Of a stretch of 50,705 nucleotides of DNA, positions 1-50,705 are shown piece by piece. Within the stretch, counting starts at the first letter, position 1. Each line of letters opens with the position of its first letter. Where the stretch lies: IMG/VR virus record IMGVR_UViG_3300029876_000011; one strand, written 5' to 3'. The notes beneath the pieces were generated by a model, which made no database searches, had not been told where the DNA came from, and saw only the letters and a program-made list of their open reading frames with translations. Made by a program: the position numbers and the translations under genes. The stretch is from a virus.

Positions 1-99
1 TTTCTTTACTCCAGAAACAGAACAAATTTGTTCCACATATTCTACTGTTGCCTTTACTACTTCTTTTTTTGTTTTGTCATTTACATATTTATCATATGT
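1..99. repeat. Terminal redundancy: bases 1-99 are identical to 50607-50705
   Basis: Direct comparison of the two window ends; the duplicated block lies inside a coding sequence. Confidence 0.9.
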
Positions 100-6700: not shown

Positions 6701-6889
6701 AACTGTATTTAATTGTTCAATTTTTGCAGATAAACCATCAGAACTTTTACTCCAGTCATCCATACCAGCACTGGCTGCTTTAAATTCTGCATTTGCTAAT
6801 TTAATGTCTTTATTTGCTTGTTGAATACCACTTTTAAATTCAGACAAATCAACTCTAAACTTTGTTGTTACTTCTTTTGCTTTAGCCAT
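3740..6889 (-). CDS. Tail tape measure protein
   Basis: 1049 aa; N-terminal coiled-coil (K/E-rich); long run of hydrophobic Gly/Ala/Ile/Leu/Pro repeats; sits between chaperones and Dit. Confidence 0.8.
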   Translation of the reverse strand: MAKAKEVTTKFRVDLSEFKSGIQQANKDIKLANAEFKAASAGMDDWSKSSDGLSAKIEQLNTVLTAEKKKLSILEQQQQKTVEMERKAAEEKVKLKRQIDIHEKALQNVIDRYGEQSKEVENARKHIDKLKSEYDSANKAQKNHAKAIEDNNIAIKKQEASVKGTEKEIKNYENSLDDVSKAEKKAAKTGKSVEDSLKEIEKSADKTEGSLSKLSKGLGSIAKAGLKGLGAGVTALAGGFLASGAASQEFVEDMGKLETAFTTSGHSAEAGKKAYEGMVGILGETDQSVEAVNHLAKLTQNEEELAKWTDIAAGVYATFGDSLPLEGLTEAANETAKVGQVTGPLADALNWAGISEDEFNEKLAACNSEQERATLITETLNSTYEEAAKKYQELNADLIASRQATSDFNSAMAEVGKVAMPINTLIKQFGADLLNSLVPGLKEAGEGLKGLFAGTEGAEEQLKNGIQKVIDGLLGKITEALPKILQVGVQIATSLIQGIVQALPSILTTIMGLIPQITESLLSMLPMLVDVGADLINELLYGMGTMIPQLIVQVIEIVPKIIENLVNNIPMLIEGATEFFMAIVEAIPTVVQALTTALPQIIKSIIDGLLQGIPDLLQGALTLLDGIIQAIPQIIPPLVEAIPTIINTLISGLVQGIPMLIDGAIQLLSAIIQAIPTIIQELSKALPTIVTAIIDGLVAGIPALIQGALQLLLGIVEAIPQLIAALIPEIPTIILAIVEALLSNAPKIYEIAITVFMEIVKAVPKIALELLKAVPKIITAFMKAFLELPPKIINTLANIISSVIDWGINFAKKAKESAINFVENVINFIKDLPTKIKEWFDNTIEKVIEWKDNMVQNAKDAANNFVTNVIDKIKELPGKAKTAITDFIDKIKTMITDVDWGQLGLDIVKGIINGMKNIGSSIWSGVKDVGGKIKDGFKDFFGIHSPSKVMADEVGKYLTMGISEGAIDEVDDAKKEINKALNKMVSQINLPSLDLNTNVSGNNPNASNSKTVNNYYNFNQTNNSPKPLDRLEIWRQSKNLLNSKGGSYV

Positions 6890-6904
6890 ACAATCACCTC
6901 CTTG

Positions 6905-7126
6905 TTAAATCCAACCTCCAGTACCCCTCTTTCCAGTAACATTTCTTCTGTAAGTTGAATTACTTCTTTGAACATTGTTAGGTTCAATGTTATTTTCCTC
7001 TTTATAGTTATTACTTCTTTGTATTCTTCTTATTAACTTGAATACTTCCCCACTTGGTGTATTCCATATAATAAAAGGATTTAAAGAATAATATCTTTGA
7101 CATAAACTATCAATAATTCCAAACAT
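6905..7126 (-). CDS. T-like C-terminal extension of the tail assembly chaperone, reachable by a -1 frameshift from 7150..7497
   Basis: The -1 frame is open from the slippery site at 7171-7177 through to 6905 and gives KKRDEGTQVKSVPISLSMFGIIDSL...; there is no own ribosome-binding site. Confidence 0.5.
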   Translation of the reverse strand: MFGIIDSLCQRYYSLNPFIIWNTPSGEVFKLIRRIQRSNNYKEENNIEPNNVQRSNSTYRRNVTGKRGTGGWI

Positions 7127-7149
7127 AGATAGAGAAATGGGAACACTTT

Positions 7150-7497
7150 TTACTTGTGTTCCCTCATCACGTTTTTTATTTCAGCAGTTAACTGATCTTT
7201 AGTTTCAACAAATATTTTGAAGATGATTGGAACTAGTTTAGAAGTTGCCACACGACTTAATTCTTCTTCTGTTAATCCTTCAAAAATATCTAGCATTAAA
7301 GGTTTAACTTCTTTTAGATTTTTTAAGATAGCCATACCTAAAGACATATCAAGTTCTCCTTCGCCTATCTTGTCAAAATCTAGTGTATTTAAAATGTTGT
7401 CGATAACTCCAAAAGGTAAATCATATCCTTCTGCTGTATAAGTTTTTTCTATTTCTCTTTTATTTTCTTTTTTTGGTATTTGTAGTTCTAATTTCAT
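7150..7497 (-). CDS. Tail assembly chaperone (G-like)
   Basis: 115 aa acidic protein between major tail protein and TMP; contains the slippery site. Confidence 0.55.
   Translation of the reverse strand: MKLELQIPKKENKREIEKTYTAEGYDLPFGVIDNILNTLDFDKIGEGELDMSLGMAILKNLKEVKPLMLDIFEGLTEEELSRVATSKLVPIIFKIFVETKDQLTAEIKNVMREHK
7171..7177 (-). promoter_or_regulatory. Programmed -1 ribosomal frameshift slippery heptamer A_AAA_AAC
   Basis: Minus strand reads GAA ATA AAA AAC GTG; the X_XXY_YYZ heptamer is in the zero frame 20 nt before the chaperone stop, at the G/T chaperone position between major tail protein and TMP. Confidence 0.55.
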
Positions 7498-7610
7498 TTT
7501 ATTTTCCTCCTTATCAAAAATTAGATTGTGGGTAATTCATATAAGATAAGGTATTATATGAAAATGTAATATTCCACTGTCCCCACTTATTTTACTATTT
7601 GAATACTAAA

Positions 7611-8237
7611 TTATGCACTTGGTGTTGGTGCAAATGATGAAAGAGTATCAGGTGTTTGTACTGTTTTAAACCACTCAGACAAATCTAATTTAGTTCCATC
7701 ATCTTTAGTATCTTCTAATGCAACATAAACTTTTCTTCCACCATTTGTGAATTTATGAGTTGTTGCAATACCTGTATATACTAGAGACATATTGTTTGAA
7801 TCTGTTCCAGCATTTTTAGTTGTGTTAGTTTCATCTGGTATTTGGAAAGTTCCTTTTAAAGCCCATTTATAAGTCTTAACTCCATCTGTTGTTTCACTAA
7901 CATAACCAACTGCAAAGTAAGGATTAGTAACTCCATCTCCTCCACCTAGAATAGCACCAGTTGTTGTATCAATTTGCTGTCCTGTTAATTTTGCTAACAT
8001 TGAATTTGTTAAATGGTCTATTGTAAATGTTCTTGTTTCTGCTCCTACACCTTTTAAAACTAATGCTGGATTGTTGTCATAATATTTAGTTTCACTACCT
8101 TGCTCAGTTGTAACTCCAACTTCAGCAAGTCCTGCTATACTAAAAACTTCTCCAGTTTCATAACCAGTTGAATCATCTTTTGATACTAATGCTGCCACAA
8201 GATTTTCACAACCTCTATATTCTGCTATTTGCTTCAT
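7611..8237 (-). CDS. Major tail protein
   Basis: 208 aa, Thr/Gly-rich beta-rich protein just upstream of the chaperone pair. Confidence 0.6.
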   Translation of the reverse strand: MKQIAEYRGCENLVAALVSKDDSTGYETGEVFSIAGLAEVGVTTEQGSETKYYDNNPALVLKGVGAETRTFTIDHLTNSMLAKLTGQQIDTTTGAILGGGDGVTNPYFAVGYVSETTDGVKTYKWALKGTFQIPDETNTTKNAGTDSNNMSLVYTGIATTHKFTNGGRKVYVALEDTKDDGTKLDLSEWFKTVQTPDTLSSFAPTPSA

Positions 8238-18881: not shown

Positions 18882-19601
18882 TTAAATAGTAAATGTCTTA
18901 TTAAAACATAGCCAAGCACTAGTGCTTGCTGTTGCATTAGCATTTGTTCCATATCTTGAAAATTGAACTGTACCATTTGAATTAATTGTAAGTAACCAAA
19001 CATTTTTTCCTGAACCTTGACATATTTCAAAAATCGCATTTGATGGTCTATATCCTGTCGGCAAAGTAAATATTGTTACGCCAGTAGTGCTACCAGTCAA
19101 ATTACTTTTTGGTGATACAACTCCTCTTATTTCAACTATATTTCCTACTTTTCTATATTGAGGTGTATTTGAAGAAATATTGCTATAAGCATTGAAATTA
19201 CTAGTTAATGTAGCATTTTTCCAACCACTATCATCTAAATCTTCATAAGAACTATTAGTTATCTTGTACCTTTTAGAACTATTACTCGAAATAATAGTTA
19301 CATAAGAGTAAGATGTTCCTTTCTCTACAATTACATAAGCAAAGGGATCTACTCCACTTATTCCACTTTGAGAAGAATAATATTTAAAATAACCATATAT
19401 TTTATAAATACCAGTATTTAAATTTCTTAATATGATTGGATTAGAAGCATCTTCACTTGCTTTATATATTGGTAATTGCTCATCTATGTCAGTAATAACA
19501 TAACTCTCATTTTTTGAAAGTGAGTTACTATTTTTTAACTCTCTATATTTAGAAAGAGTTAGTTTGTTAATGGTAACTCCATTTACTTGTGTTACACCCA
19601 T
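18882..19601 (-). CDS. Tail-fibre-associated protein (shares a domain with the collagen-like fibre)
   Basis: EDASNPIILRNLNTGIYKIYGYFKYYS parallels [27 protein letters not shown] in 20925..23315. Confidence 0.4.
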   Translation of the reverse strand: MGVTQVNGVTINKLTLSKYRELKNSNSLSKNESYVITDIDEQLPIYKASEDASNPIILRNLNTGIYKIYGYFKYYSSQSGISGVDPFAYVIVEKGTSYSYVTIISSNSSKRYKITNSSYEDLDDSGWKNATLTSNFNAYSNISSNTPQYRKVGNIVEIRGVVSPKSNLTGSTTGVTIFTLPTGYRPSNAIFEICQGSGKNVWLLTINSNGTVQFSRYGTNANATASTSAWLCFNKTFTI

Positions 19602-19604
19602 AAA

Positions 19605-20912
19605 CTACTCCCAAATTTTTGTTACTGCTGTGTAGATGGTTGGTTTATTGGTTAAATCATTGTATGAACCACTAAATAGACTAGGTTTATTAGTTAAGTC
19701 ATTATAATTTCCACTAAATATTGTAGGCTTGTTTTTTAAATCACTATATGATCCAGTAGTTGCAACTGTTGCTAAATCACTTTTATTTGCCTTATTGCCA
19801 ATAGCATTATTTAAAGTACTAACAACTGTTTCATTGTTTTGAATTGCTTCTGCTATTTCTTGCAATGTATCTAATGTTGTCGGTGCTGTACCTACTAAAT
19901 TTGCAACTTTTGTATCTGTATATGTTTTTGCTTCTGTTAATTTACTACTTGCATCTGTTTTAGTTTCAAGTCCACTTATATTTGGAATATCACTTGCATT
20001 TGCCTTGCCACTAATAGCAGAACTTAATTCTGTTTCAGTTATGTACTCACTAGGAATTGCTGTTAAGTATCCTTTATCATTTGTGAATGCACTAATCTTT
20101 GTTGGTACTGTTGGAATTGTAGGCTTATTAGTTAAATCGTTATAATTTCCACTAAAATTACTTTTTCCATTCCAAGTTTCCTTTTCACTTGCACTTACAA
20201 ATTGATCATCAGTAAATAGCCATACTTCATTATCATCATAAATTGTATCTGTAAATTTAGCATTACTTGGTACATCACTATCTACTGTATGATTATTAAC
20301 TTTTTCTGCATTGTCTACTATTCCATCGTGATTAGTATCATATACAGAACTCATCATATCTCCTTGTCCTGCATTACTCCATTTACAATCAAAATCAGTA
20401 TCACTTAATTTAGTTAATACTTGCCCTGCTGTACCTCCGACTGGTAATGCCTTTTCTACATCACCTAATACTTCTTTTGTTTCATCAAGAACTTTTTGTG
20501 CTTCTGATATAAAATCAGGATATTCTTCTGGCATATTTTCACTAGCATTAATTGAATTTAATATTGTAAATTTTATTGTATAAGTTTTAAATACTGTTCC
20601 ATCTTTTCTTAGTACTACTTCTACTTTAAGATCACCAGCAATATCTAATAATGAATTTGGAATAGCATATTCAACATATTTAATCGTTAATTTTTCGGCT
20701 TCGCTTTCTATTATTTCTTCTTGAATTTCTAACTTAGGTGTACTGAACTTTGTACCATCTATTTTTTCAAATTCTAAATAAAAATCTTTATCATACATTT
20801 TTTCATCTAACATAAACCATAGTTTGGTTGCTTCGTTTTCATAAGTTTTTCCTATGATTAAGTTGCTACAACTATAATTTCTATCATTATTTAAATAAAT
20901 ATCTATTTCCAT
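19605..20912 (-). CDS. Tail fibre protein
   Basis: 435 aa; C-terminal repeated (F)SG(N/S)YNDLTNKP(T/S) motifs; overlapping start with neighbour. Confidence 0.5.
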   Translation of the reverse strand: MEIDIYLNNDRNYSCSNLIIGKTYENEATKLWFMLDEKMYDKDFYLEFEKIDGTKFSTPKLEIQEEIIESEAEKLTIKYVEYAIPNSLLDIAGDLKVEVVLRKDGTVFKTYTIKFTILNSINASENMPEEYPDFISEAQKVLDETKEVLGDVEKALPVGGTAGQVLTKLSDTDFDCKWSNAGQGDMMSSVYDTNHDGIVDNAEKVNNHTVDSDVPSNAKFTDTIYDDNEVWLFTDDQFVSASEKETWNGKSNFSGNYNDLTNKPTIPTVPTKISAFTNDKGYLTAIPSEYITETELSSAISGKANASDIPNISGLETKTDASSKLTEAKTYTDTKVANLVGTAPTTLDTLQEIAEAIQNNETVVSTLNNAIGNKANKSDLATVATTGSYSDLKNKPTIFSGNYNDLTNKPSLFSGSYNDLTNKPTIYTAVTKIWE

Positions 20913-20924
20913 TTCTAACCTCCT

Positions 20925-23315
20925 TTACTTTACTGAATCTGATGGACTAGTTTTTGTATATTCAAGTGTTATTTGAACATTAGTTGGACTATATGACCAT
21001 TGATTAGTACTAAAATACAAACTTATTTCTGTTGAAGTAAAATCATATAACCAAATTTCCCAACTAGTATAATTTGCGGGTATCATTTGCTGTTTACCAT
21101 CATTTCTATCACATCTGCCATGAGCATTTATAAAATTTTTTACATTACTTATGCCATGCTGTATATAAGTTTTTACTGTACTTGGTGTTCCTATATTTAT
21201 TGTTTTACTATATAAAGTCGAACCATCTGTATACTTGCCTATCACTTTTTCTTCTGTTGAATAATTATTTAGGTTGTTTATATAAGAGCAACTATAAGTA
21301 TCAGTAGTACTTGTGCTTTTTGTATTTGAAACTTCTGCTACCACTCCAGAACTTTGAAATGCTTTAATTATCCAGCAATCTACTTCATATGGTTGTAAAT
21401 TGTTATGTCCTTGGTTTCCACCTGTATTAAATATAGGGTCATTAGATGTACTATAATTGCCTAGTTTACCAGCAGTAAGATAATTCTCACCGAAACCTGT
21501 ATCATTTTGAGAACATTTTATAGTGTGCTGATGACTTGGCATTTCATCTATAGTCAAAGTGTGTTTTTTTGCACCATCTTTTTTTCCTAATAAATTAAAC
21601 TCTGTTTCTGATGAAGATAAACCAACTGATACTCTTCCTTGCTTATCAGGTAAATTGAATGTTGTTGAACCATCTCCATCACCATAACTTGTACCTATAA
21701 CTGCAAATAAATCAGAATAAGTTGTTCTAGAAACTGCTTGCCCATTACATAACAACCAATTTTCTGGTATAGTGGTACTTCCATAAGGCATCATTGATCC
21801 TATCGGCAATGTATCTCCTGCAACTCCACCATCCAATGTTTTTTCAGTATAACTGTTACTTGTAATTTCATAACCAATTACTTTGTTTCCATATGGTTGC
21901 AATAACTGAACATAAGTAGTTGTTGAACTCTTAGATATTGACATTAATAAAGGACTTGTTATTGCTGTTGTTCCATCATAAGTTGAATAATACTTTATAT
22001 ATCCATACAATTTATAAATACCTTCATCAAGATTATAAAGAACAATAGGATTAGAAGTATCTTCACTTGATAGATTTATAACTGGTTTATTGGTTAAATC
22101 GTTATAATTTGTTACACCTCCACCAGCACCATCTGCACCTTTAGGAATACCAAAATCAAATATAGGATTTGCTGTTGTTCCTCTTTGAGTTACTGTTGCT
22201 TCACTTCCTGCTGCTAATGTTGTTGTTGTTCCTACTTGAATATTAGGAGTTATTCCATCTTGTCCTGTTGCTCCAGTATCTCCTTTTTCACCCTGAATAC
22301 CTTGCGGTCCCTGCTCTCCTTGTGGTCCTGTATCTCCTTTTAACAAATTGTAATCACTTGTTGTTGCTGCCACTGACCTTAAAATAGAATATTCTACTAC
22401 TGTACCAATTACATCTAATGGAATAGTCAATACAATATTATTATTTGAAATATTATATTCAGTTCCCTCTACCATCTTGAAACCATTGATATAAACACTT
22501 AATATATCTATATCACTTCTAAATGTTGTCTCACTAAATGAAATAGGTATAGTTGTTACATTTGTTGTTGTGGTTGTATATGTATTTTTTATATTTTTGT
22601 AGTATGTTGTTATATCTGTTTTTAATTCTTCTAATTGTGCTTCTGTAAAATCTTGATAAGTAAATGGATCACCTTTTGGTCCTTGTGGTCCTGTTTCACC
22701 AGTTTCACCCTTTGGTCCTTGTTCTCCTTGCACTCCCTGTTCTCCTTGTGGTCCTGTATCTCCTTGAATACCTTGTTCTCCTTTTTCACCTTGAACACCT
22801 TGTTCACCTTGCGGTCCTGTTTCACCTTGCTCTCCTTTTGCTCCTCTAGGAATAACAAAGTTAAAAACTGCTGCACTTGATGTCCCACTATTTGTTACTT
22901 GTGCATCTGTTCCTGGCTCTCCAGTAGTAGTTGTTCCTACTTGAATAGTTGCAGCACTTCCTCCACTTTGTGCATTTAGTTTTCCATTACTATCAATCGT
23001 TAAATTATCTCCAACAATTATTCCACCTAGTGAAGTTGTTGAAGCAATTGGTAAATCATTATATTTATAATTAGTTGATTTTCTAACTAAGTAATTTCCA
23101 CTGTCTATTTTTAAAATAATATCATCTGTACTTGTTAAATTTTTTGGAATAGAAAAGGTTATATAATTACTACTTCCTCCATCATATTTCACCTTTAATT
23201 TAACAGTTCCATTTGTATAGAAATAAGAGATTGGAGGATTATAATTTATAATTCCATCATTTATTTCTAATACATTTGTTGTTTTTGTAGTTCCATTTTG
23301 CAATGTAAATTCCAA
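20925..23315 (-). CDS. Collagen-like tail fibre protein
   Basis: Two Gly-X-Y blocks ([31 protein letters not shown]... and [28 protein letters not shown]); a YNDLTNKP motif; C-terminal globular domain. Confidence 0.65.
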
Positions 23316-30057: not shown

Positions 30058-31233
30058 TTAACCATTTACTAATACCGCCTTATTTCCTGTTAGTTCTTCC
30101 CATCTTTTAACTATTACATCACAATATTTAGGATCTAATTCCATGCTATAAGATTTTCTTTCATTTTGCTCACATGCTATTAATGTTGTTCCACTACCAG
30201 CAAATAAATCTAATACTATATCTTCCTTCTTTGTATTGTTTTGAATTTGATAGTCAAATAATTTAATTGGTTTCATTGTTGGATGTTCTGCATTTCTTGA
30301 TGGTTTATCAAAGTTTAATACAGTTGTTTGAGTTCTATCACTAGCCCATAAATGACTTGCTCCCTCTTTCCAACCATATAAGCAAGGTTCATGTTTCCAA
30401 TGATAATCTTGTCTACCCATAACCATAGAGTTTTTGTTCCAAATTAAACATTGTCTAACTTTCCAACCATTATCAAAACAAGCACCTCTAAAGTTATATC
30501 CTTCACTATCAGCATGCCAAATATAAAAGACTGCTCCTTCTTTCATTACACTATCTGCACTAGCAAATGCATCTCGTAAAAATTGGCGGAAACTATCATT
30601 GTCCATCTTATCATTTTTAATTTTTAAACCAGTACCACCTTCATAATCGACATTATAAGGAGGATCAGTAATCAATAAATCTACTTTTGTACCATCCATT
30701 AATTTTTCCAAATCATCTATAGCAGTACTGTCTCCACACATTAATCTGTGATTTCCTAGTTGATATATATCTCCTAACTTTGATTTCGGTTCTTCTACCT
30801 CTTCTAATGCTCCCTCAATATCAAAATCATCTTCTTCTGCTTCTGGTTCTTCTTCAAACATTGTCATATCAAATTCAAAATCAGACATATCAATATCTTG
30901 AATAGCCTTTAGTTCTTCTTCTAATTTAGTAAAATCCCATTCTGCAATTTCTCCGACCTTATTATCTGCTAGTCTAAAGGCTTTAATTTGCTCTGGTGTT
31001 AAATCATCAGCAATTACACAAGGAACAGTTTCTAAGCCTAATTTTTTAGCAGCCCTAATTCTGGTATGTCCAGCAACAATAACATTATCTCTATCAAGAA
31101 TAATTGGTACTTTAAAGCCAAACTCCTTTATGCTATTTGCTACTGGTCCAATAGCATTTTCATTGTTTCTTGGATTATTCTCATATTCTTTAATATCACT
31201 GATGTTAATTTCTATGATGTTCAATATCTTCAC
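30058..31233 (-). CDS. ParB-like nuclease domain fused to a DNA methyltransferase (beta-class, N6-adenine or N4-cytosine)
   Basis: N-terminal ParB motif IILDRDNVIVAGHTRIRAA; DPPY motif IV precedes the AdoMet motif LDLFAGSGTT. Confidence 0.75.
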   Translation of the reverse strand: MKILNIIEINISDIKEYENNPRNNENAIGPVANSIKEFGFKVPIILDRDNVIVAGHTRIRAAKKLGLETVPCVIADDLTPEQIKAFRLADNKVGEIAEWDFTKLEEELKAIQDIDMSDFEFDMTMFEEEPEAEEDDFDIEGALEEVEEPKSKLGDIYQLGNHRLMCGDSTAIDDLEKLMDGTKVDLLITDPPYNVDYEGGTGLKIKNDKMDNDSFRQFLRDAFASADSVMKEGAVFYIWHADSEGYNFRGACFDNGWKVRQCLIWNKNSMVMGRQDYHWKHEPCLYGWKEGASHLWASDRTQTTVLNFDKPSRNAEHPTMKPIKLFDYQIQNNTKKEDIVLDLFAGSGTTLIACEQNERKSYSMELDPKYCDVIVKRWEELTGNKAVLVNG

Positions 31234-31569: not shown

Positions 31570-31741
31570 ATACCCCTCCTTTCAGTATGCAACATTACCA
31601 CTATCTTATATTGCACCTATGTAAGTACTAACTAGCCTAGATATATCAAGACTTTAAGCCCTATTTTTTATCTAAAATAGTTTTTAACTTTTTTAAGGTG
31701 CTTTTTTGGCTCAAAAAATGGAACTCCCCCTGATTGATAAC

Positions 31742-33767: not shown

Positions 33768-33906
33768 TTTTTACACCTCCGTTCATCTTATTTCCTCCTT
33801 ATATATTTTATGCAACATTACCCATATGTTATATTGCACCTAGTAGACATTGAATAAGACTATATATATCAATGCTTTAACTAGTTTTTACTATCTAAAA
33901 TAGTTT

Positions 33907-34155
33907 TTATGATTTTTGACCTATATTTTCTATCTTTTTTCTCATATTTAGATATTCTTTACCAATAGGACTTTCAAAATATTTATTACATAAATCTATT
34001 GCAAAATTGATTGTTGCATTTGCTACATTTTTTATAGGTTCAATAACATCTTCTGGTTCTATGTCGTTTGCAATGCAATAATTAGCAAAATTATGTTTTG
34101 TTTCATCACTCATACCTTTGACTATACTAGCATTTGTAAATTTAATATGTTCCAT
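33907..34155 (-). CDS. Hypothetical protein
   Basis: 82 aa. Confidence 0.4.
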   Translation of the reverse strand: MEHIKFTNASIVKGMSDETKHNFANYCIANDIEPEDVIEPIKNVANATINFAIDLCNKYFESPIGKEYLNMRKKIENIGQKS

Positions 34156-35054: not shown

Positions 35055-35223
35055 TTTTCCTCCATATACCCATTTCTACAAGTTCTTTTCGTTCTACTTC
35101 TTCTTCTGTTAGTTCTATTGGTTTATTTATTTTCTTTAATTCTGCTAATATTTCTTTTTGAATAGTTACTAATTTATGAATATCCTCATAAAATCTTCTT
35201 TCGTATTGATTCATAACTTTCAA
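35038..35223 (-). CDS. Hypothetical protein
   Basis: 61 aa; overlapping neighbours. Confidence 0.35.
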   Translation of the reverse strand: MKVMNQYERRFYEDIHKLVTIQKEILAELKKINKPIELTEEEVERKELVEMGIWRKNDKRI

Positions 35224-35710
35224 CTCCTTTCATTTTGCTTTTAACATTTATCCACACTTTTTTTCCTAAAATGTTATTGATTTCTCCAATTGTATAACCT
35301 TTTAAAAATAATTTTATACATTTAAGTTCTTGTTGGTTTAAGTGTGCCTTTTCTATTAATTCATTAAGATATATTTTTGTGTCTATCTCATGTTGTGGAT
35401 TATAAGATTTGTTATAAATGACTATCGGATTTTTAAAATCAAGTTTATCAATAATATCTTCTTCATAAATTTCATGCCTTACCTTTGATGAATTAAGATA
35501 ATTGTATTTCCAAAATTGTTTATCAGCATTGTATAGTTTTTCAAATGTATAATTCTCTTTATGTTTAACTTGATATCTGTTCCATAATACTAATAATTTG
35601 TGTATGTAATAATCATATAAATCATCATATTCAACATATTTTATTGTTTTGATATCTACCTTGCATAGGATTTTTACCTTGTCATAGTATTTTATTAATT
35701 CTTCCATCAT
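35186..35710 (-). CDS. Hypothetical protein with C-terminal sigma-region-4/LuxR-like helix-turn-helix
   Basis: LNQQELKCIKLFLKGYTIGEINNILGKK. Confidence 0.4.
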   Translation of the reverse strand: MMEELIKYYDKVKILCKVDIKTIKYVEYDDLYDYYIHKLLVLWNRYQVKHKENYTFEKLYNADKQFWKYNYLNSSKVRHEIYEEDIIDKLDFKNPIVIYNKSYNPQHEIDTKIYLNELIEKAHLNQQELKCIKLFLKGYTIGEINNILGKKVWINVKSKMKGVESYESIRKKIL

Positions 35711-36153
35711 ACAAACATTTTACCAATATGATACTTTTTAAAATCTTGATATTTCTTTAATAGTTCTTCTTCTTTTTTTATATCTTCATCAATTTTGTCA
35801 AATATGTTTGCTATATGCTTCTGTGTTTTAATATCATTATGTATTACTAATTCCATATGATTAAATACATCTGGTTGTATGTTTATCCCTGTTTGATATT
35901 TAGAAAGAAATACAGGCAGTTGATCACTTATAAGATAATATAAATATTTGCTATTAATTAATTTGTTGTTTTTAACAATTAGCACTATATATTGGCTTTC
36001 TACATTAGTATCTTGATTTAAGTAAAATATTTGTCCCTTACTAGCAGATACTTGAATAATGATATTTCCTTCACTATAAACTTTATTTTTCTTTGCTCTT
36101 TCAATATCAACTAAATCTAATAATTTCACTTCTTTATAATTTCTTAAATCCAT
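35707..36153 (-). CDS. hsdS: Type I restriction-modification specificity subunit, half-size (single target-recognition domain)
   Basis: 148 aa; HsdS-like TRD plus conserved C-terminal helix (HIANIFDKIDEDIKKEEELLKKYQDFKKY); start 4 nt after the hsdM stop. Confidence 0.65.
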   Translation of the reverse strand: MDLRNYKEVKLLDLVDIERAKKNKVYSEGNIIIQVSASKGQIFYLNQDTNVESQYIVLIVKNNKLINSKYLYYLISDQLPVFLSKYQTGINIQPDVFNHMELVIHNDIKTQKHIANIFDKIDEDIKKEEELLKKYQDFKKYHIGKMFV

Positions 36154-36157
36154 ATAA

Positions 36158-37450
36158 TCACCCTAACCACTCCATCATAGGTTTTATTGCTTTTGAATAA
36201 TATTCTTTTTCTTCTGGTGTAGTTCCCTCTAACTGTTCAAGCATTCCTTTTAATTGTTTTTCACATTCTTTAGTTTCTTTTTCAATTTTAATAATATCCT
36301 GTACTACTTCCTTTAAATCTGGTAATGGTTCGGTTTCAAACGTATCAACATATCTTGGAATATTTAAGTTATAATCATTTTTAACTACTTCTTCAAAACT
36401 TGCTAAATGTGAATATTTTTCTATTTCTTTTCTATTTTTGTATGTTTCTATTATTTTGTTTATTTGTTCATCATTCATATCATTTTGTTTTGCTTGCTTT
36501 ATGCAGTTTTTAGAACTATCTATAAACAAAATATTTTTATCTTGTTTATTTTTGTTCAATATTAATATGAATGTAGGAATACCTGTATTCAAAAACATTT
36601 TTTCAGGAAGGCCAATAATGCTATCAATTAAATTATTTTCTATTAATTGTTTTCTTATTTCTCCCTCTGCTGATCCTCTGAACAATACACCATGAGGCAA
36701 TATCATAAATGCTTTACCGTTATCACTCAATCTATATAGAATATCTAATACAAATGCAAAATCGGCTTTGCTTTTTGGTGCTAACTCATATCCTTCAAAC
36801 CTTTTATCACATTTTGGCTGCCATTCTATTGAATATGGAGGATTAGAGATGATGGTGTTATATTTAATATCTTGTATATTTTCACTTTTTCCGATTACAC
36901 TGAAATCATTACCTTTTTTCAGTGTGAAAGTATTTATTATTTCATTTTTCAATACATCTTTTTGAATTATTAAGGCATCTGTATTTCTAATTGATAAGTT
37001 AAACAACAATATAGGTATTGACCTAGAAGATAATTCTTCACATTGAAAAGTTGCATTCTTATTTTCATTGTAAGTAAACAATGTTAAAGATCCTGTTCCA
37101 CTGCATACATCTAATACACTATCTTGTTTATCTTGTAACCTTGCTATTATTTTACATATACTATCAGGAGTATAATCTTGCTTTAATCCTTTTCTATCAC
37201 TATGTTCTTCTTGAAAATAATCTCTAAAAAAATCGCTTGATAAATCAATGTCGTACTTCATAAAATTATTAAATAGTTTGTTTTTTTCTTCTTCATTTAA
37301 TAATAAAGTCATTAACTTATCAGGTAATTCAAAACTCTCTTTTATTCCTATAAGTTCATTTATTACTTTGCTTGTTATTTTTTTCTTTTTTTCATCATTA
37401 AATAATGACATTTGTCCATTCATATTTCCTCCTTTTACTATTTGAAGCAT
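36158..37450 (-). CDS. hsdM: Type I-like N6-adenine DNA methyltransferase (HsdM); likely true start at ATGAATGGACAAATG (~37422), since the annotated MLQIVKGG N-terminus is the conserved motif plus ribosome-binding site
   Basis: Motif I VLDVCSGTGSL, motif IV NPPYS; C-terminal HsdM-like region. Confidence 0.8.
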   Translation of the reverse strand: MLQIVKGGNMNGQMSLFNDEKKKKITSKVINELIGIKESFELPDKLMTLLLNEEEKNKLFNNFMKYDIDLSSDFFRDYFQEEHSDRKGLKQDYTPDSICKIIARLQDKQDSVLDVCSGTGSLTLFTYNENKNATFQCEELSSRSIPILLFNLSIRNTDALIIQKDVLKNEIINTFTLKKGNDFSVIGKSENIQDIKYNTIISNPPYSIEWQPKCDKRFEGYELAPKSKADFAFVLDILYRLSDNGKAFMILPHGVLFRGSAEGEIRKQLIENNLIDSIIGLPEKMFLNTGIPTFILILNKNKQDKNILFIDSSKNCIKQAKQNDMNDEQINKIIETYKNRKEIEKYSHLASFEEVVKNDYNLNIPRYVDTFETEPLPDLKEVVQDIIKIEKETKECEKQLKGMLEQLEGTTPEEKEYYSKAIKPMMEWLG

Positions 37451-38319
37451 TAAAACTTCACATTTTCTAATTTTTTTCGTTTTTGCTCTCCTGATGTTTT
37501 AGTATATATCCTTGTTGTCTTTAAATCATTATGTCCTAACAAATCTGCTAAATCTAGCACATTCTCTGGATAACTTTCTAAAAATACCTGTGCAAATAAA
37601 TGTCTAAAGTTATGAGGATGTACCTTTTCTTTATTAATTCTAGCAATTCCTGCAATCTTCTTCATTTGTCTCCAGATGGTTGATACTGCTGGCATTTTAC
37701 CTTTACACTTTGGATCATTTGATAGAAATATGTAACCGCTATCTATTCCTTTTGATTTATAGTATTTTTTTAATTCTCTTGATAGGTCTTGCCTTATTAC
37801 TATTTCTCTATCTTTTCCTTTGTTATATACCTTTATATTTTTTCTAGGTGTTTTTTCTAGGTTTTCAACTGTGAAGTACTTTAATTCTCCAATTCTACAA
37901 CCTGTCATACCTAAAACTTTAATTATGTAATATAATTGCTCGTTGCCTGTTTTATTAGCAATTCTTAATAATCTCTTAAAGTCTGCTATGGTTAATGATT
38001 CTTCATTGCTACTCTGCTCTTGCATTTTATATTTTTTTATTGTTAAGTCATTTAATCCTAACCATCTTAAATACTTATTTAATGATACTATCCATATATT
38101 CATACTCTTTGGACTTTCTGTTATGGTTCTTATATAGTCTTTATAATCCATAGTAGTATCTTTTGTTATTGACTTCTCATCATCAGGAAGCCAATTAATG
38201 AATTTCATTACATTGTTTTTATATTGCTTTAATGTATTTACTTCTTTTTCTTCATATCTTAATTCAGTTATCCATTCATCAACTTTTGATAGTAGTTCTT
38301 CTTTGTTCATAGTTATCAC
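37450..38319 (-). CDS. Tyrosine recombinase (XerC/D-sized; no arm-binding domain)
   Basis: C-terminal catalytic signature HNFRHLFAQ ... LGHNDLKTTRIYTKTS (R..H-x-x-R..Y); stop overlaps the hsdM-motif ATG. Confidence 0.75.
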   Translation of the reverse strand: MITMNKEELLSKVDEWITELRYEEKEVNTLKQYKNNVMKFINWLPDDEKSITKDTTMDYKDYIRTITESPKSMNIWIVSLNKYLRWLGLNDLTIKKYKMQEQSSNEESLTIADFKRLLRIANKTGNEQLYYIIKVLGMTGCRIGELKYFTVENLEKTPRKNIKVYNKGKDREIVIRQDLSRELKKYYKSKGIDSGYIFLSNDPKCKGKMPAVSTIWRQMKKIAGIARINKEKVHPHNFRHLFAQVFLESYPENVLDLADLLGHNDLKTTRIYTKTSGEQKRKKLENVKF

Positions 38320-38658
38320 CTAGAAAGGTAAGTCCTGATCCGTTATTTGATAATCTGTAAATGTATCTTGTTCTTTTGTTTCAACTTGTTGTTGCTGCTG
38401 TCTCTGTACATTTTCTACAACATCAAATTCAGATATAAATATGTATTCATACTTCTTACCATTTACATCATCACATTTTAACCAGGCATTTTTAATTTTA
38501 ATATCTGTTTTATTTTCTAATTCAACACCCTTTTTAAATCTACAATTTTTATACCAATTAACATAATTTCCATCTTGTTTTTTATCACTTAGACTTAATG
38601 AATAATATCCATTTTCATTTTTAAATACTTTTACTGAATAATCACTTGTTATATTCAT
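38320..38658 (-). CDS. SSB-like OB-fold protein (Gln-rich linker, acidic tail ending DLPF)
   Basis: C-terminus QQQQQVETKEQDTFTDYQITDQDLPF resembles the SSB D-(I/L)-P-F tail; stop abuts the recombinase start. Confidence 0.45.
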   Translation of the reverse strand: MNITSDYSVKVFKNENGYYSLSLSDKKQDGNYVNWYKNCRFKKGVELENKTDIKIKNAWLKCDDVNGKKYEYIFISEFDVVENVQRQQQQQVETKEQDTFTDYQITDQDLPF

Positions 38659-39105: not shown

Positions 39106-39202
39106 TCTCCTTTTTTTCCATATATTGGTTGCAACATTACCTATATATTATATTGCACTATATAAATGTTGATTTTTCCTTTATTTCATAAGGCATTGAG
39201 CC

Positions 39203-39364
39203 TTATTTTTTATGTAAAATAGTTTTTATGATTTTTGGTAGTAGTTTTTCTTTATAAAACACATAATGGCAGTCTGTTGCTCTAGTTATATATTTTACTT
39301 TTATGTCTTTTCTACTAATAAATTTTTCTAAATCAACTATCCATTCAAAGTGGTCTACTTTCAT
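39203..39364 (-). CDS. Small ORF (53 aa), not in the ORF track; C-terminus encoded by the repeated element-1
   Basis: Hand translation MKVDHFEWIVDLEKFISRKD...PKIIKTILHKK, verified codon by codon. Confidence 0.3.
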   Translation of the reverse strand: MKVDHFEWIVDLEKFISRKDIKVKYITRATDCHYVFYKEKLLPKIIKTILHKK

Positions 39365-39383
39365 TTTTTTCACTCTCCTTTCT

Positions 39384-39560
39384 CTACTTATTTTTATGTA
39401 AAATATTTTTTATGATTTTTGAACCAGTATCAAACATATTTTTTATAAAATCTGATATGGTATAATCTAGTAATTCATCTAGTATTTGAAATAAACTAAC
39501 CGCTAAACATATTAAATATAATGTTGCTAATACAAATAACATAAATATTATAAAATCCAT
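39384..39560 (-). CDS. Small membrane ORF (58 aa), not in the ORF track; C-terminus encoded by element-1
   Basis: MDFIIFMLFVLATLYLICLAVSLFQILDELL...SKIIKNILHKNK; ATG abuts the stop of 39561..39788. Confidence 0.3.
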   Translation of the reverse strand: MDFIIFMLFVLATLYLICLAVSLFQILDELLDYTISDFIKNMFDTGSKIIKNILHKNK

Positions 39561-40671: not shown

Positions 40672-41046
40672 GTGGAAATGACTAAAATACAAAAGTCATT
40701 AGATACTAAGGAAATTGGAGAAAAGGTTAGGCAATTAAGGAAAGCAAGATCAATGAGGCAAGATGAACTTGGAGAAGTTTTAGGAGGTTTAAGTAGAGGA
40801 CAAGTAAGTAATTTAGAAACAGGGAGAAGAAATTTAAATATTCATCAAATAAAAATATTAGCAGACTTTTTTGGAGTATCTTTAGAAACATTAGGATTAA
40901 AAACAGAAGAAGTAGAAGTTAATGATTTATTGGCTCGTGCAAAATTAATTTTTGAAAATGATACTGTACCTTTTGAAGAAAAACAAGAATTGAGTGAAGA
41001 AATTATGAAAATGTATATCATAGCAAAGGAGCAAATAAAAAAATAG
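40672..41046 (+). CDS. cI: cI-like XRE-family repressor (HTH only, no S24 peptidase domain)
   Basis: IGEKVRQLRKARSMRQDELGEVLGGLSRGQVSNLETGRR helix-turn-helix; plus strand, upstream of int. Confidence 0.65.
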   Translation: MEMTKIQKSLDTKEIGEKVRQLRKARSMRQDELGEVLGGLSRGQVSNLETGRRNLNIHQIKILADFFGVSLETLGLKTEEVEVNDLLARAKLIFENDTVPFEEKQELSEEIMKMYIIAKEQIKK

Positions 41047-41496: not shown

Positions 41497-42855
41497 ATGA
41501 AAGCAAAAAGAATAGCAGGATATGTTAGGGTTTCACACGATGAACAAAAGAAATATGGCTATTCAGTTCAAGCACAAATAGATAGGATTATAAGGTATGC
41601 AGAAGAAAATAAATGTCAATTAGTAGAAATATATGTTGATGAGGGTTTTACTGCTACAAAAATGAAAAGACCTGATTTATTAAGAATGTTAAACGATTTA
41701 GATAAATTTGATGTACTTGTATTTACTCGTTTGGATCGTTTCTCTAGGAATGTATTACAAGCAAACAAAATGGTTGAGATTATGGAAGAATACAATGTAG
41801 CCATTAAATCAATTGAAGAAGAAGATATTGATACAACTACTGCTGATGGTAAGTTCAACTTCAATTTAAGGGTATCACTCGCCCAAAGGGAAGCAGAAAA
41901 GACAAGCGAACGGATTAAATCAATATTTGAATTTAAGATTAAACAAGGGCAACCAGTAAGTGGTAACCAACCTTATGGTTATAAAATCGTAACCAAAGAC
42001 AATAAGAAAACAATCGTTAAAGATCCTGAACTTATACCTATTGTAAATGATATATTTGAATATTTTGCTAAACATCATACTATAAGAGGCACTATGACAT
42101 ATATTAATGGTAAATACGACATAAGCAAAAATTACAATTGTATTTATAGAATGCTAACAAGTACTGAATACTATGGACTATATGAAGGTAACCCTAATTA
42201 CTACCCTCCATACATCACAAAAGAAGAATTTGAAAAGAACGTACAAAGAAGAAAAGCAAATGTTAAAGGAAGAAAAGGAACTAATGTTTATCTATTCACC
42301 TCCCTAATGAAATGCCCTTTTTGTGGGTTTAAAATGGTTGGTAAGTTCACCAAAAGAAAAAACAAAAATGGGACAATTAGAGAATACTGGGGTTACATTT
42401 GTAGCAACAACCAAAGAAATAAAGCATGTGCTAGTGGTAAGGTTATTAATGAAAATGTAATTTTAGACTTCCTTTTAAAAAATGTTGAAAAACTCGCTCA
42501 AAAACATATTGCAGAAGTTATGGAAGTTAAACCAGCAGATAAAACCGATTTACCTCAAAATCGGATTAATGAAATTTTAGAGGAAATTGACAACTTAAAT
42601 TATATGTTCCAAAAGAAAAGAATTGACATTAAAAAGTATGATAAAGAATATGAGGCACTTGAAAAAGAACTAGCAAACTTACAAAAAGAAACACCAAAGG
42701 AAACTGATATTACTATATTAGAAGAATTTTTAAAGAGTGATTGGAAAGATGTTTATAACTCTTTAGACAAAGAAAATCAAAGGGCTTTATGGAGAAATTT
42801 GATAAAGGAAATTAAGTTTAATAAAGATTTTAAAATAGATGTAGATTTCTTATAA
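41497..42855 (+). CDS. int: Large serine recombinase (integrase)
   Basis: N-terminal resolvase catalytic domain with RIAGYVRVSHDEQ (Ser nucleophile); recombinase domain; zinc ribbon CPFCGF...C..C; C-terminal coiled-coil. Confidence 0.85.
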   Translation: MKAKRIAGYVRVSHDEQKKYGYSVQAQIDRIIRYAEENKCQLVEIYVDEGFTATKMKRPDLLRMLNDLDKFDVLVFTRLDRFSRNVLQANKMVEIMEEYNVAIKSIEEEDIDTTTADGKFNFNLRVSLAQREAEKTSERIKSIFEFKIKQGQPVSGNQPYGYKIVTKDNKKTIVKDPELIPIVNDIFEYFAKHHTIRGTMTYINGKYDISKNYNCIYRMLTSTEYYGLYEGNPNYYPPYITKEEFEKNVQRRKANVKGRKGTNVYLFTSLMKCPFCGFKMVGKFTKRKNKNGTIREYWGYICSNNQRNKACASGKVINENVILDFLLKNVEKLAQKHIAEVMEVKPADKTDLPQNRINEILEEIDNLNYMFQKKRIDIKKYDKEYEALEKELANLQKETPKETDITILEEFLKSDWKDVYNSLDKENQRALWRNLIKEIKFNKDFKIDVDFL

Positions 42856-50473: not shown

Positions 50474-50705
50474 CTATACCTTTGTTAAAAGCATTAACTG
50501 CACTTTCAATTAATATTTCTAATTCAGTTTCACTTATATTAATACCTTTTTCATTTAACCACTCAATTGATTTTTCTTTTGCTTGATTAAATTTTTCTTG
50601 GCTTGTTTTCTTTACTCCAGAAACAGAACAAATTTGTTCCACATATTCTACTGTTGCCTTTACTACTTCTTTTTTTGTTTTGTCATTTACATATTTATCA
50701 TATGT
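50457..50705 (-). CDS. Holin-like small membrane protein, C-terminal portion of the junction-spanning gene (see 1..198)
   Basis: The ORF-track entry 50457..50642 begins at an internal GTG; the reading frame is open upstream through 50705 and continues at 101-198. Confidence 0.45.
   Translation of the reverse strand, partial: TYDKYVNDKTKKEVVKATVEYVEQICSVSGVKKTSQEKFNQAKEKSIEWLNEKGINISETELEILIESAVNAFNKGIGVKNE
50607..50705. repeat. Terminal redundancy, second copy of 1-99
   Basis: Identical sequence. Confidence 0.9.

Follow-up and report, generated by a model that had tools for sequence, protein, structure and literature searches.

In this study, we analyzed the viral genome IMGVR_UViG_3300029876_000011 from IMG/VR (50,705 nucleotides (nt); this whole stretch is referred to as the window, and coordinates refer to it), in which five closely packed genes on the minus strand (35186-38658) include an HsdM-type DNA methyltransferase (M), a half-size specificity subunit HsdS (S) and a tyrosine recombinase. 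It is quite probable that M and S constitute an orphan, phage-borne methyltransferase of the 'Type 1½' (M.AhdI-like) kind, acquired horizontally as a moron, used for self-protection and standing beside an unrelated recombinase of the phage backbone. This reading is carried by the identities of the genes, the boundaries of a mobile cassette, its presence or absence among near-identical phages, the independence of the recombinase, and the lack of hsdR and of a second hsdS, which could all be observed directly. Viral contigs used for comparison are given L-numbers (for example, L012 and L043). The features in question are:

38320..38658, minus strand: SSB-like protein of 112 amino acids, with an OB fold, a variable linker and a C-terminal ...DLPF tip
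37450..38310, minus strand: Xer/XerA-like tyrosine recombinase of 286 amino acids, with core-binding and catalytic domains and without an arm-binding domain
36158..37423, minus strand: HsdM-type gamma-class N6-adenine DNA methyltransferase of 421 amino acids, without the HsdM N-terminal domain
35707..36153, minus strand: half-size HsdS of 148 amino acids, with one target-recognition domain (TRD) and one coiled-coil helix; its ATG lies 4 nt past the hsdM stop
35186..35710, minus strand: open reading frame (ORF) ORF174, predicted sigma-70/ECF-like fold of two helical domains with a linker between them; overlap with the stop of hsdS (ATGA)
35212..37433: mobile cassette hsdM-hsdS-ORF174 of 2.2 kb, delimited by homology with an unrelated phage and by 'empty-site' relatives
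37436..37450, minus strand: copy of the 15-nt motif ATGCTTCAAATAGTA at the left edge of the cassette, overlapping the recombinase stop and immediately 5' of the ribosome-binding site (RBS) of hsdM

The boundaries of the cassette were revealed by comparison with two kinds of relatives. Across the early region, L012 and L013 share 96-99% identity with the window, and their recombinases are 99-100% identical to the one found here; what they lack is window positions ~35231..37417, that is, exactly hsdM, hsdS and ORF174. In both contigs, the recombinase stop with its 15-nt motif leads directly into the RBS of the next backbone gene, and both cassette joints fall within a shared AAAGGAG, which is RBS microhomology. 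The opposite arrangement was found in L043, whose backbone is unrelated: it encodes hsdM, hsdS and ORF174 at 74%, 82% and 70% protein identity, respectively, with DNA homology (78.8%) restricted to window positions 37433..35212, and in this contig the three genes are accompanied by a canonical SSB and different neighbor genes, with no recombinase nearby. L020 possesses M and S (74% and 80% amino acid identity) without ORF174, adjoining a DNA polymerase gene; together with L003, this gives three contigs in which the hsd genes occur without the recombinase. M and S could also be identified in 17 phage records of Streptococcus, Enterococcus and Lactobacillus, where they are usually annotated as 'DNA methyltransferase' and 'hypothetical protein', and S homologs of 145-148 amino acids adjoin M in the Streptococcus and Enterococcus phages as well as in L020 and L043. 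Because M and S recur together across unrelated phages, they can be regarded as a functional pair carried by the mobile 2.2-kb cassette. Judging from these alignments, the SSB-like gene, the recombinase, hsdM and hsdS are not one inherited unit. An earlier reading of this stretch, made before any database search (hereafter the sequence-only reading), had recognized these four genes on the minus strand, whose identities were confirmed, and had grouped the Xer-like gene with M and S in a single module; the latter idea fails on both sides, given a nearly identical recombinase without hsdM and hsdS and a cassette without the recombinase in unrelated phages.

The product of hsdM matched N6_Mtase (1.8e-70) and the PADLOC model MTase_I (1e-79). 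It contains both motif I (LDVCSGTGS) and NPPY, as a gamma-class HsdM of classical type I restriction-modification (R-M) systems should, and the DxxxGxG and NPPY motifs of adenine methyltransferases named by the sequence-only reading are thus in place. Its score against TIGR00497 (183 bits, model positions 169-510 matched) stayed under the cut-off of 243 bits because the N-terminal third of HsdM is absent; the best PDB match, 3lkd (3e-68), covers chain residues 196-529, and the closest enzymes are those of type IC and of S. thermophilus. For the 148-amino-acid protein, matches were obtained with Methylase_S (8e-10, residues 18-129) and with more than 50 Specificity_I models of PADLOC, and it aligned with a single TRD plus the central helix of 1yf2 (residues 104-205). 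Thus, it does belong with HsdS models, and it has one TRD and one helix, as had been proposed from the bare sequence, instead of the two TRDs and two helices of a classical HsdS. The start of hsdM is probably the ATG at 37423 behind AGGAGG, 24 nt past the recombinase stop. With regard to the junctions described by the sequence-only reading, the 4-nt gap between hsdM and hsdS and the overlap of the recombinase stop with a conserved motif were found as claimed, whereas recombinase and hsdM are adjacent genes that do not overlap: the RBS of hsdM lies immediately 3' of the motif, and 24 nt separate the recombinase stop from the probable hsdM start. The stop of the SSB-like gene does abut a GTG, but the recombinase probably starts at the ATG at 38310 (286 amino acids) rather than there, since its homologs have 280-286 amino acids. 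It should be noted that close gene spacing is common throughout the operon and is not peculiar to these four genes.

The third gene of the cassette, ORF174, had been overlooked by the earlier reading. No sequence-profile match was obtained for it, and hhalign against the other sigma factor of the phage showed no relation; the designation as sigma-like therefore refers to the predicted fold. Its C-terminal 13 residues are encoded by backbone sequence beyond the recombination joint. A role of ORF174 as a concealed restriction endonuclease was also weighed and rejected, as the predicted fold is all-helical and sigma-like and contains no nuclease fold.

The first 99 nt of the window (1-99) are the same as the last 99 nt (50607-50705), forming a terminal direct repeat, and the window is a circularly closed assembly that represents a complete phage genome of ~50.6 kb. 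On account of this terminal overlap, our searches covered the whole phage genome. No HsdR, ResIII or helicase ORF is present in the closed circular genome, in agreement with the claim that hsdR is missing; the ORFs longer than 430 amino acids encode tape measure, tail fiber, terminase, portal and capsid proteins. Likewise, no cognate type II endonuclease could be identified at the locus, where ORF174 is sigma-like and the other neighbors are backbone genes.

'Type 1½' methyltransferases consist of a separate M and a single-TRD S, assemble as two M and two S subunits and recognize a symmetric bipartite target (PMC2878638; PMC3874165 section 35); M.AhdI, for example, is an M2S2 enzyme with the symmetric target GACN5GTC (PMC2878638; PMC3874165 section 35). 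Engineered half-S enzymes also recognize palindromic bipartite sites (PMC3874165, Table 2 text; PMC2877798), and type I components carried by prophages are already on record (PMC11318856). The proteins described here share the combination of a separate M with a single-TRD S. By analogy with M.AhdI, the M2S2 stoichiometry and the symmetric target may be expected to apply to them as well. In the scenario that we propose, the cassette would have entered the phage by illegitimate or microhomology recombination at RBS sequences, immediately downstream of the recombinase. M and S would assemble as M2S2 like M.AhdI, with two single-TRD S chains, paired via their helices, standing in for one full S subunit, and the complex would place N6-methyladenine on each strand of a bipartite target that is symmetric. 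Expression from the early operon would then allow replicating phage DNA to be methylated in advance of host restriction. De novo self-protective methylation appears to be the most likely role because of the lack of an endonuclease partner and the position in the early operon. The M+S part of the sequence-only proposal (a self-protecting orphan M+S with an Xer-like resolvase) is thus retained through the match to 'Type 1½' enzymes, and its Xer-like part is dropped.

Several points weigh against this reading. The activity, stoichiometry and target of M+S are predictions; S is unusually small (148 amino acids, compared with ~25 kDa for S.AhdI) and covers only positions 49-162 of the Pfam model, and M has no N-terminal domain. 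With such a small S and a truncated M, the complex may differ from M.AhdI. In addition, the reading does not account for a role of the co-transferred, sigma-like ORF174, and four different methyltransferases occupy the slot behind the recombinase in different lineages, so that the adjacency is perhaps not purely accidental.

The recombinase itself matched Phage_integrase (1.6e-18) together with an N-terminal SAM-like domain. Its best NCBIfam matches were XerA and XerD, and XerA reached 134.5 bits, with all others lower, against a cut-off of 220 bits; since every NCBIfam Xer cut-off was missed, the protein lies outside the curated XerA/XerC/XerD/XerS equivalogs. The nearest solved structures are Pyrococcus XerA (4a8e, 1e-24), Thermoplasma XerA and XerD. 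Its R, K, HxxR, H and Y residues align with R148, K172, H244, R247, H270 and Y279 of XerD, and on these residues the enzyme is predicted to be catalytically intact. It carries no arm-binding domain and hence does not group with the integrases that have one. A total of 4397 homologs were found. All contexts examined are alike in that the gene belongs to an early lytic operon and the phage is temperate, with a separate integrase next to its repressor; L004, L039, L040 and L041 have a serine recombinase in that place, and L006 has a tyrosine integrase. The flanking genes vary by lineage and the early-operon position is fixed. On the basis of these sequence contexts, the recombinase is a conserved backbone gene of a large family of temperate siphophages, probably of low-GC spore-forming Firmicutes, and is unrelated to the methylase cassette, whose neighbor it became by insertion and whose partner it is not. 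The SSB-like gene meets the description of a bacterial or phage SSB (an OB fold and an acidic C-terminal D-[IL]-P-F tip); it is confined to the closest relatives, its slot is variable, and it is likewise a variable cassette. Other genes of the window that bear on the recombinase and the methyltransferase are:

30058..31233, minus strand: ParB_N + N6_N4_Mtase fusion by domain matches, the second methyltransferase of the phage
40672..41046: CI-like repressor
41497..42855, plus strand: large serine recombinase by profile matches, the likely integrase, beside the CI-like repressor

The tyrosine recombinase was also considered as the phage integrase and rejected for this role because the large serine recombinase adjoins the repressor; its lytic early-operon position and its coexistence with serine or tyrosine integrases in relatives speak against the role as well. 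It is likely an extra recombinase beside a serine integrase. The ParB_N and N6_N4_Mtase domains agree with the ParB-methyltransferase predicted at this place by the sequence-only reading, and with its count of two DNA methyltransferases for the phage.

Two families of short repeats were found around these genes. The 15-nt motif ATGCTTCAAATAGTA is present in 15 copies (~1 expected), is asymmetric and is always co-oriented with local transcription:

3862, 12801, 14133, 24944, 25450, 29925, 31892, 32220, 32768, 37436, 40516, 43376, 43785 and 46841, minus strand: copies of ATGCTTCAAATAGTA
41412, plus strand: sole plus-strand copy of ATGCTTCAAATAGTA, upstream of the integrase gene

The copies often lie just 5' of an RBS or just past a terminator-like hairpin, and one of them is located ~30 nt downstream of an early promoter (TTGACA-17-TAAAAT at 40587-40559). 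Immediately 3' of the copies at 37436 and 32768 (the latter relative to L012), relatives differ by insertion or deletion of gene cassettes. Backbone relatives have the motif and other carriers of the cassette do not, which makes it an element of the backbone and not of the cassette. In number, asymmetry and orientation it resembles the stoperators of mycobacteriophages (PMC9283540), a likeness that we take as analogy only.

The second family is a 28-bp palindrome (TGCAATATAAY-N6-GTWATRTTGCA) with dif-like 11-6-11 geometry, of which each phage has two or three direct copies. Those in the window are:

39130..39157, minus strand: copy 1, TGCAATATAAY-N6-GTAATGTTGCA, heading the sub-operon that contains the recombinase
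33811..33838, minus strand: copy 2, same orientation, different central 6 nt
31588..31615, minus strand: copy 3, same orientation, different central 6 nt

The palindrome is embedded in conserved islands of ~130 bp, and the genes on either side of these islands vary from one relative to another. Even phages with just 47-61% identity in the recombinase have kept the palindrome, which usually flanks the recombinase gene and lies directly upstream of it in L038 (4909-4936) and L054. At ~27 gut-metagenome loci (for example, L087 8368-8395), it is found ~20 nt upstream of a Phage_integrase-family gene for a protein of 223 amino acids (PF00589, 1.2e-18), which BLASTP does not relate to the recombinase of the window (E=0.32); the palindrome thus accompanies two unrelated tyrosine-recombinase families, the Xer-like one and the 223-amino-acid PF00589 protein. 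Short-range inverted repeats were also sought upstream of distant recombinases (SE-1, BS-TP3, L018, L023 and L040), with nothing convincing found there. The palindrome always precedes an RBS, and the only mismatches in it are sense-strand T·G. Covariation does not decide whether this is an RNA element or a protein-binding site: there was a single compensatory pair, several changes were compatible with U·G pairing, and at one position half of the variants lose the pairing. The predicted RNA folding energies (-8 to -10 kcal/mol; z-scores -0.4 to -1.8) indicate a stability only marginally greater than that of shuffled controls and neither support nor exclude an RNA hairpin. The palindrome could serve either for the binding of a recombinase or regulator or as an RNA hairpin in front of the RBS. 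Three small ORFs of the window (39203-39373, 39384-39560 and 33907-34155) end alike, in a repeated 3' stretch (...KIIKTILHKK) that continues into the conserved intergenic island preceding the palindrome, so that gene end, island and palindrome together make up the repeat unit. A further occurrence was observed in L028 (5489-5516; also L099), a 12.8-kb contig with a GC content of ~0.40, where the palindrome lies ~110 nt upstream of a sigma-70-like gene. This is a small integrase-bearing element of much higher GC content without the Xer-like gene, and it may be satellite-like, borrowing the regulatory site of a helper phage.

Comparison of lineages also revealed at least four different methyltransferase genes in the slot 3' of the recombinase, namely the type I-like M+S, an N6_N4 enzyme and two C5 types:

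L045, 3568-4260: N6_N4 enzyme of 230 amino acids, between the recombinase and hsdM
L008-L011, in L008 at 6853-8226: C5 enzyme of 457 amino acids, 13 nt past the recombinase stop
L071 and L041: C5 enzyme of 312 amino acids, 36 nt past the stop in L071 and 597 nt past it in L041 (8419-9357)
L002, 4746-5738, and L087, 6678-7157: further loci listed for this methyltransferase slot

L045 has three methyltransferases in total. In the Bacteroides phage BS-TP3, the integrase gene overlaps an HsdM-like gene; a methyltransferase-like gene for 159 amino acids is often located 0.5-1.5 kb downstream of the gene for the 223-amino-acid recombinase; and methyltransferase-like genes also come after the recombinase in two more distant families.

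Three other explanations have to be weighed against an orphan self-protecting M+S. A tyrosine recombinase two genes upstream of hsdS is an adjacency typical of epigenetic invertons (PMC7672463), and the sequence-only reading had offered as one option a phase-variable type I system, present here as a variant or as a remnant, whose recombinase would shuffle hsdS and switch the methylation specificity. This is extremely unlikely. By the published criteria (PMC7672463), an epigenetic inverton has two or more hsdS genes and inverted repeats that flank the invertible sequence, whereas the complete circular genome contains a single hsdS-like sequence: tblastn of S against the whole genome returned only the self match (next best, E=1.8), which upholds the earlier count of one copy, and the silent hsdS half-genes with inverted repeats that the sequence-only reading suggested looking for were not found in this genome. 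Nor does the genome contain credible inverted repeats flanking hsdS, as those touching the gene are AT-rich and have 71-78% complementarity, which is at chance level. Recombinase and hsd genes are inherited independently (L012 and L013 on one side, and L003, L020 and L043 on the other): the former is 99-100% conserved in phages without hsdM and hsdS, and the cassette occurs without the former. The second explanation is that M+S recruits a host HsdR, creating a new restriction specificity and superinfection exclusion, or has the epigenetic regulation of host or phage genes as its main role. It draws on the kinship of M with the HsdM family nearest to type IC and S. thermophilus enzymes, and on the mixing of mobile S and M with chromosomal partners that has been discussed for Lactococcus and Clostridium prophages (PMC11318856, discussion). 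However, M lacks the N-terminal domain, the cassette moves among phages of different hosts without an R gene, and it lies in a repressed early lytic operon, downstream of a Cro-like gene and behind the stoperator-resembling motif, a position that makes expression of M+S in lysogens unlikely. We therefore consider this explanation quite unlikely.

The third explanation concerns a functional link between recombinases and methyltransferases, either as a hotspot for cassette capture or insertion (integron- or pdif-like) or as an MrpR-like operon regulator, and we regard it as unlikely. The occurrence of four different methyltransferases directly past the recombinase gene across lineages would fit such a link, as would the overlap of the BS-TP3 integrase with an HsdM-like gene and the unrelated gene of the 223-amino-acid recombinase family, which has the same palindrome before it and a methyltransferase-like gene after it. 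The palindrome, with its 11-6-11 geometry, flanks the recombinase in most relatives and stands directly upstream in L038 and L054, and there is a precedent for a protein of tyrosine-recombinase fold that regulates via repeated sites (PMC10516654). On the other hand, the cassette joints lie in RBS microhomology and no 28-bp site bounds the cassette; the palindrome is also present in L028 without the Xer-like gene; its sense-strand T·G mismatches and fixed pre-RBS position also fit an RNA or regulatory element; and, unlike MrpR, the recombinase has kept all its catalytic residues. Since most lineages lack a methyltransferase beside the recombinase and methyltransferases are common in phage early regions anyway, the slot pattern should be considered as a lead and not as a finding. 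In its fullest form, the recombinase and the direct 28-bp palindromes at mosaic boundaries, with or without the 15-nt motif, would be a device for module exchange and cassette capture, or a recombinase-derived regulator, that has repeatedly recruited downstream methyltransferases; we give this version only a small chance. If true, it would represent a phage analog of integrons or pdif modules.

The phage has a siphovirus gene set (terminase, portal, capsid, tape measure and tail genes), together with a replication module, a sigma factor, an amidase and a CI/Cro-like switch. A group-1 glycosyltransferase gene (9795-10700) sits among the head genes, and a block of collagen-repeat, tail-collar and fiber-repeat genes (16528-23315) lies between the sigma factor and amidase genes and the terminase; both placements are unusual for the gene order of a siphovirus. 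A contig with 100% identity, L046 (50,671 bp), was found in ENA sample ERZ27256593. No match was obtained when the region was compared by megablast with 50,697 phage records, or in an Rfam search of 29.5-44 kb at E<=1. A scan for sigma-70 promoters and terminators gave 67 sites versus 82 expected and was uninformative in such AT-rich DNA. In one related prophage, cotJ-type spore-coat genes flank the element, which loosely suggests that the hosts are spore-forming Firmicutes; scanning genome contigs for the recombinase yielded only three loci and no reliable host assignment.

If the orphan 'Type 1½' reading is correct, M+S would be another case of phages carrying orphan methyltransferases against restriction, and it would provide a minimal model for type I-like target recognition. 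The phages of several Firmicutes contain a compact natural half-S family (M ~420 amino acids, S ~148 amino acids), and the near-isogenic phages with and without the cassette offer a natural experiment. The data do not reveal a new mechanism of specificity switching; the leads that go beyond the original claim are the conserved extra recombinase, the repeated insertion of methyltransferases behind it and the two repeat families that mark module boundaries.

Comparison with known systems places the locus as follows. With SpnIII and its recombinase PsrA/CreX in S. pneumoniae, it shares a tyrosine recombinase gene near hsdM and hsdS, but it differs from invertons of this type by having one hsdS, no inverted repeats, no hsdR and no co-inheritance of recombinase and hsdS. 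The recombinase has in common with the XerA/XerD dimer resolvases the core-binding and catalytic architecture, all catalytic residues and candidate 11-6-11 palindromic sites nearby, whereas it is phage-encoded, belongs to an early lytic operon and scores below the NCBIfam Xer cut-offs, and its candidate sites occur in two or three direct copies with differing central regions. MrpR (YopR) of SPbeta is a master repressor of tyrosine-recombinase fold that binds SPBRE repeats and maintains lysogeny, and it has lost most catalytic residues (PMC10516654). Both cases involve an extra protein of the tyrosine-recombinase family in a phage that integrates by a serine recombinase, together with repeated intergenic sites (PMC10516654); here, by contrast, all catalytic residues are kept and the gene is part of the lytic early operon. 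M.AhdI, M.BsaBI and M.PshAI likewise combine a separate HsdM-like M with a single-TRD S. Their setting is a bacterial type II R-M system that includes a cognate endonuclease (and, in the case of AhdI, also a C protein), whereas the pair described here is phage-borne and has no endonuclease, a shorter M (421 amino acids), a far smaller S and an accompanying sigma-like gene. Finally, the EcoR124I-NT and EcoDXXI deletions show the same principle of one TRD plus a conserved helix that dimerizes for palindromic bipartite recognition (PMC2877798; PMC3874165); those are laboratory truncations that still use HsdR, whereas the S subunits of 145-148 amino acids found here form a natural, conserved phage family.

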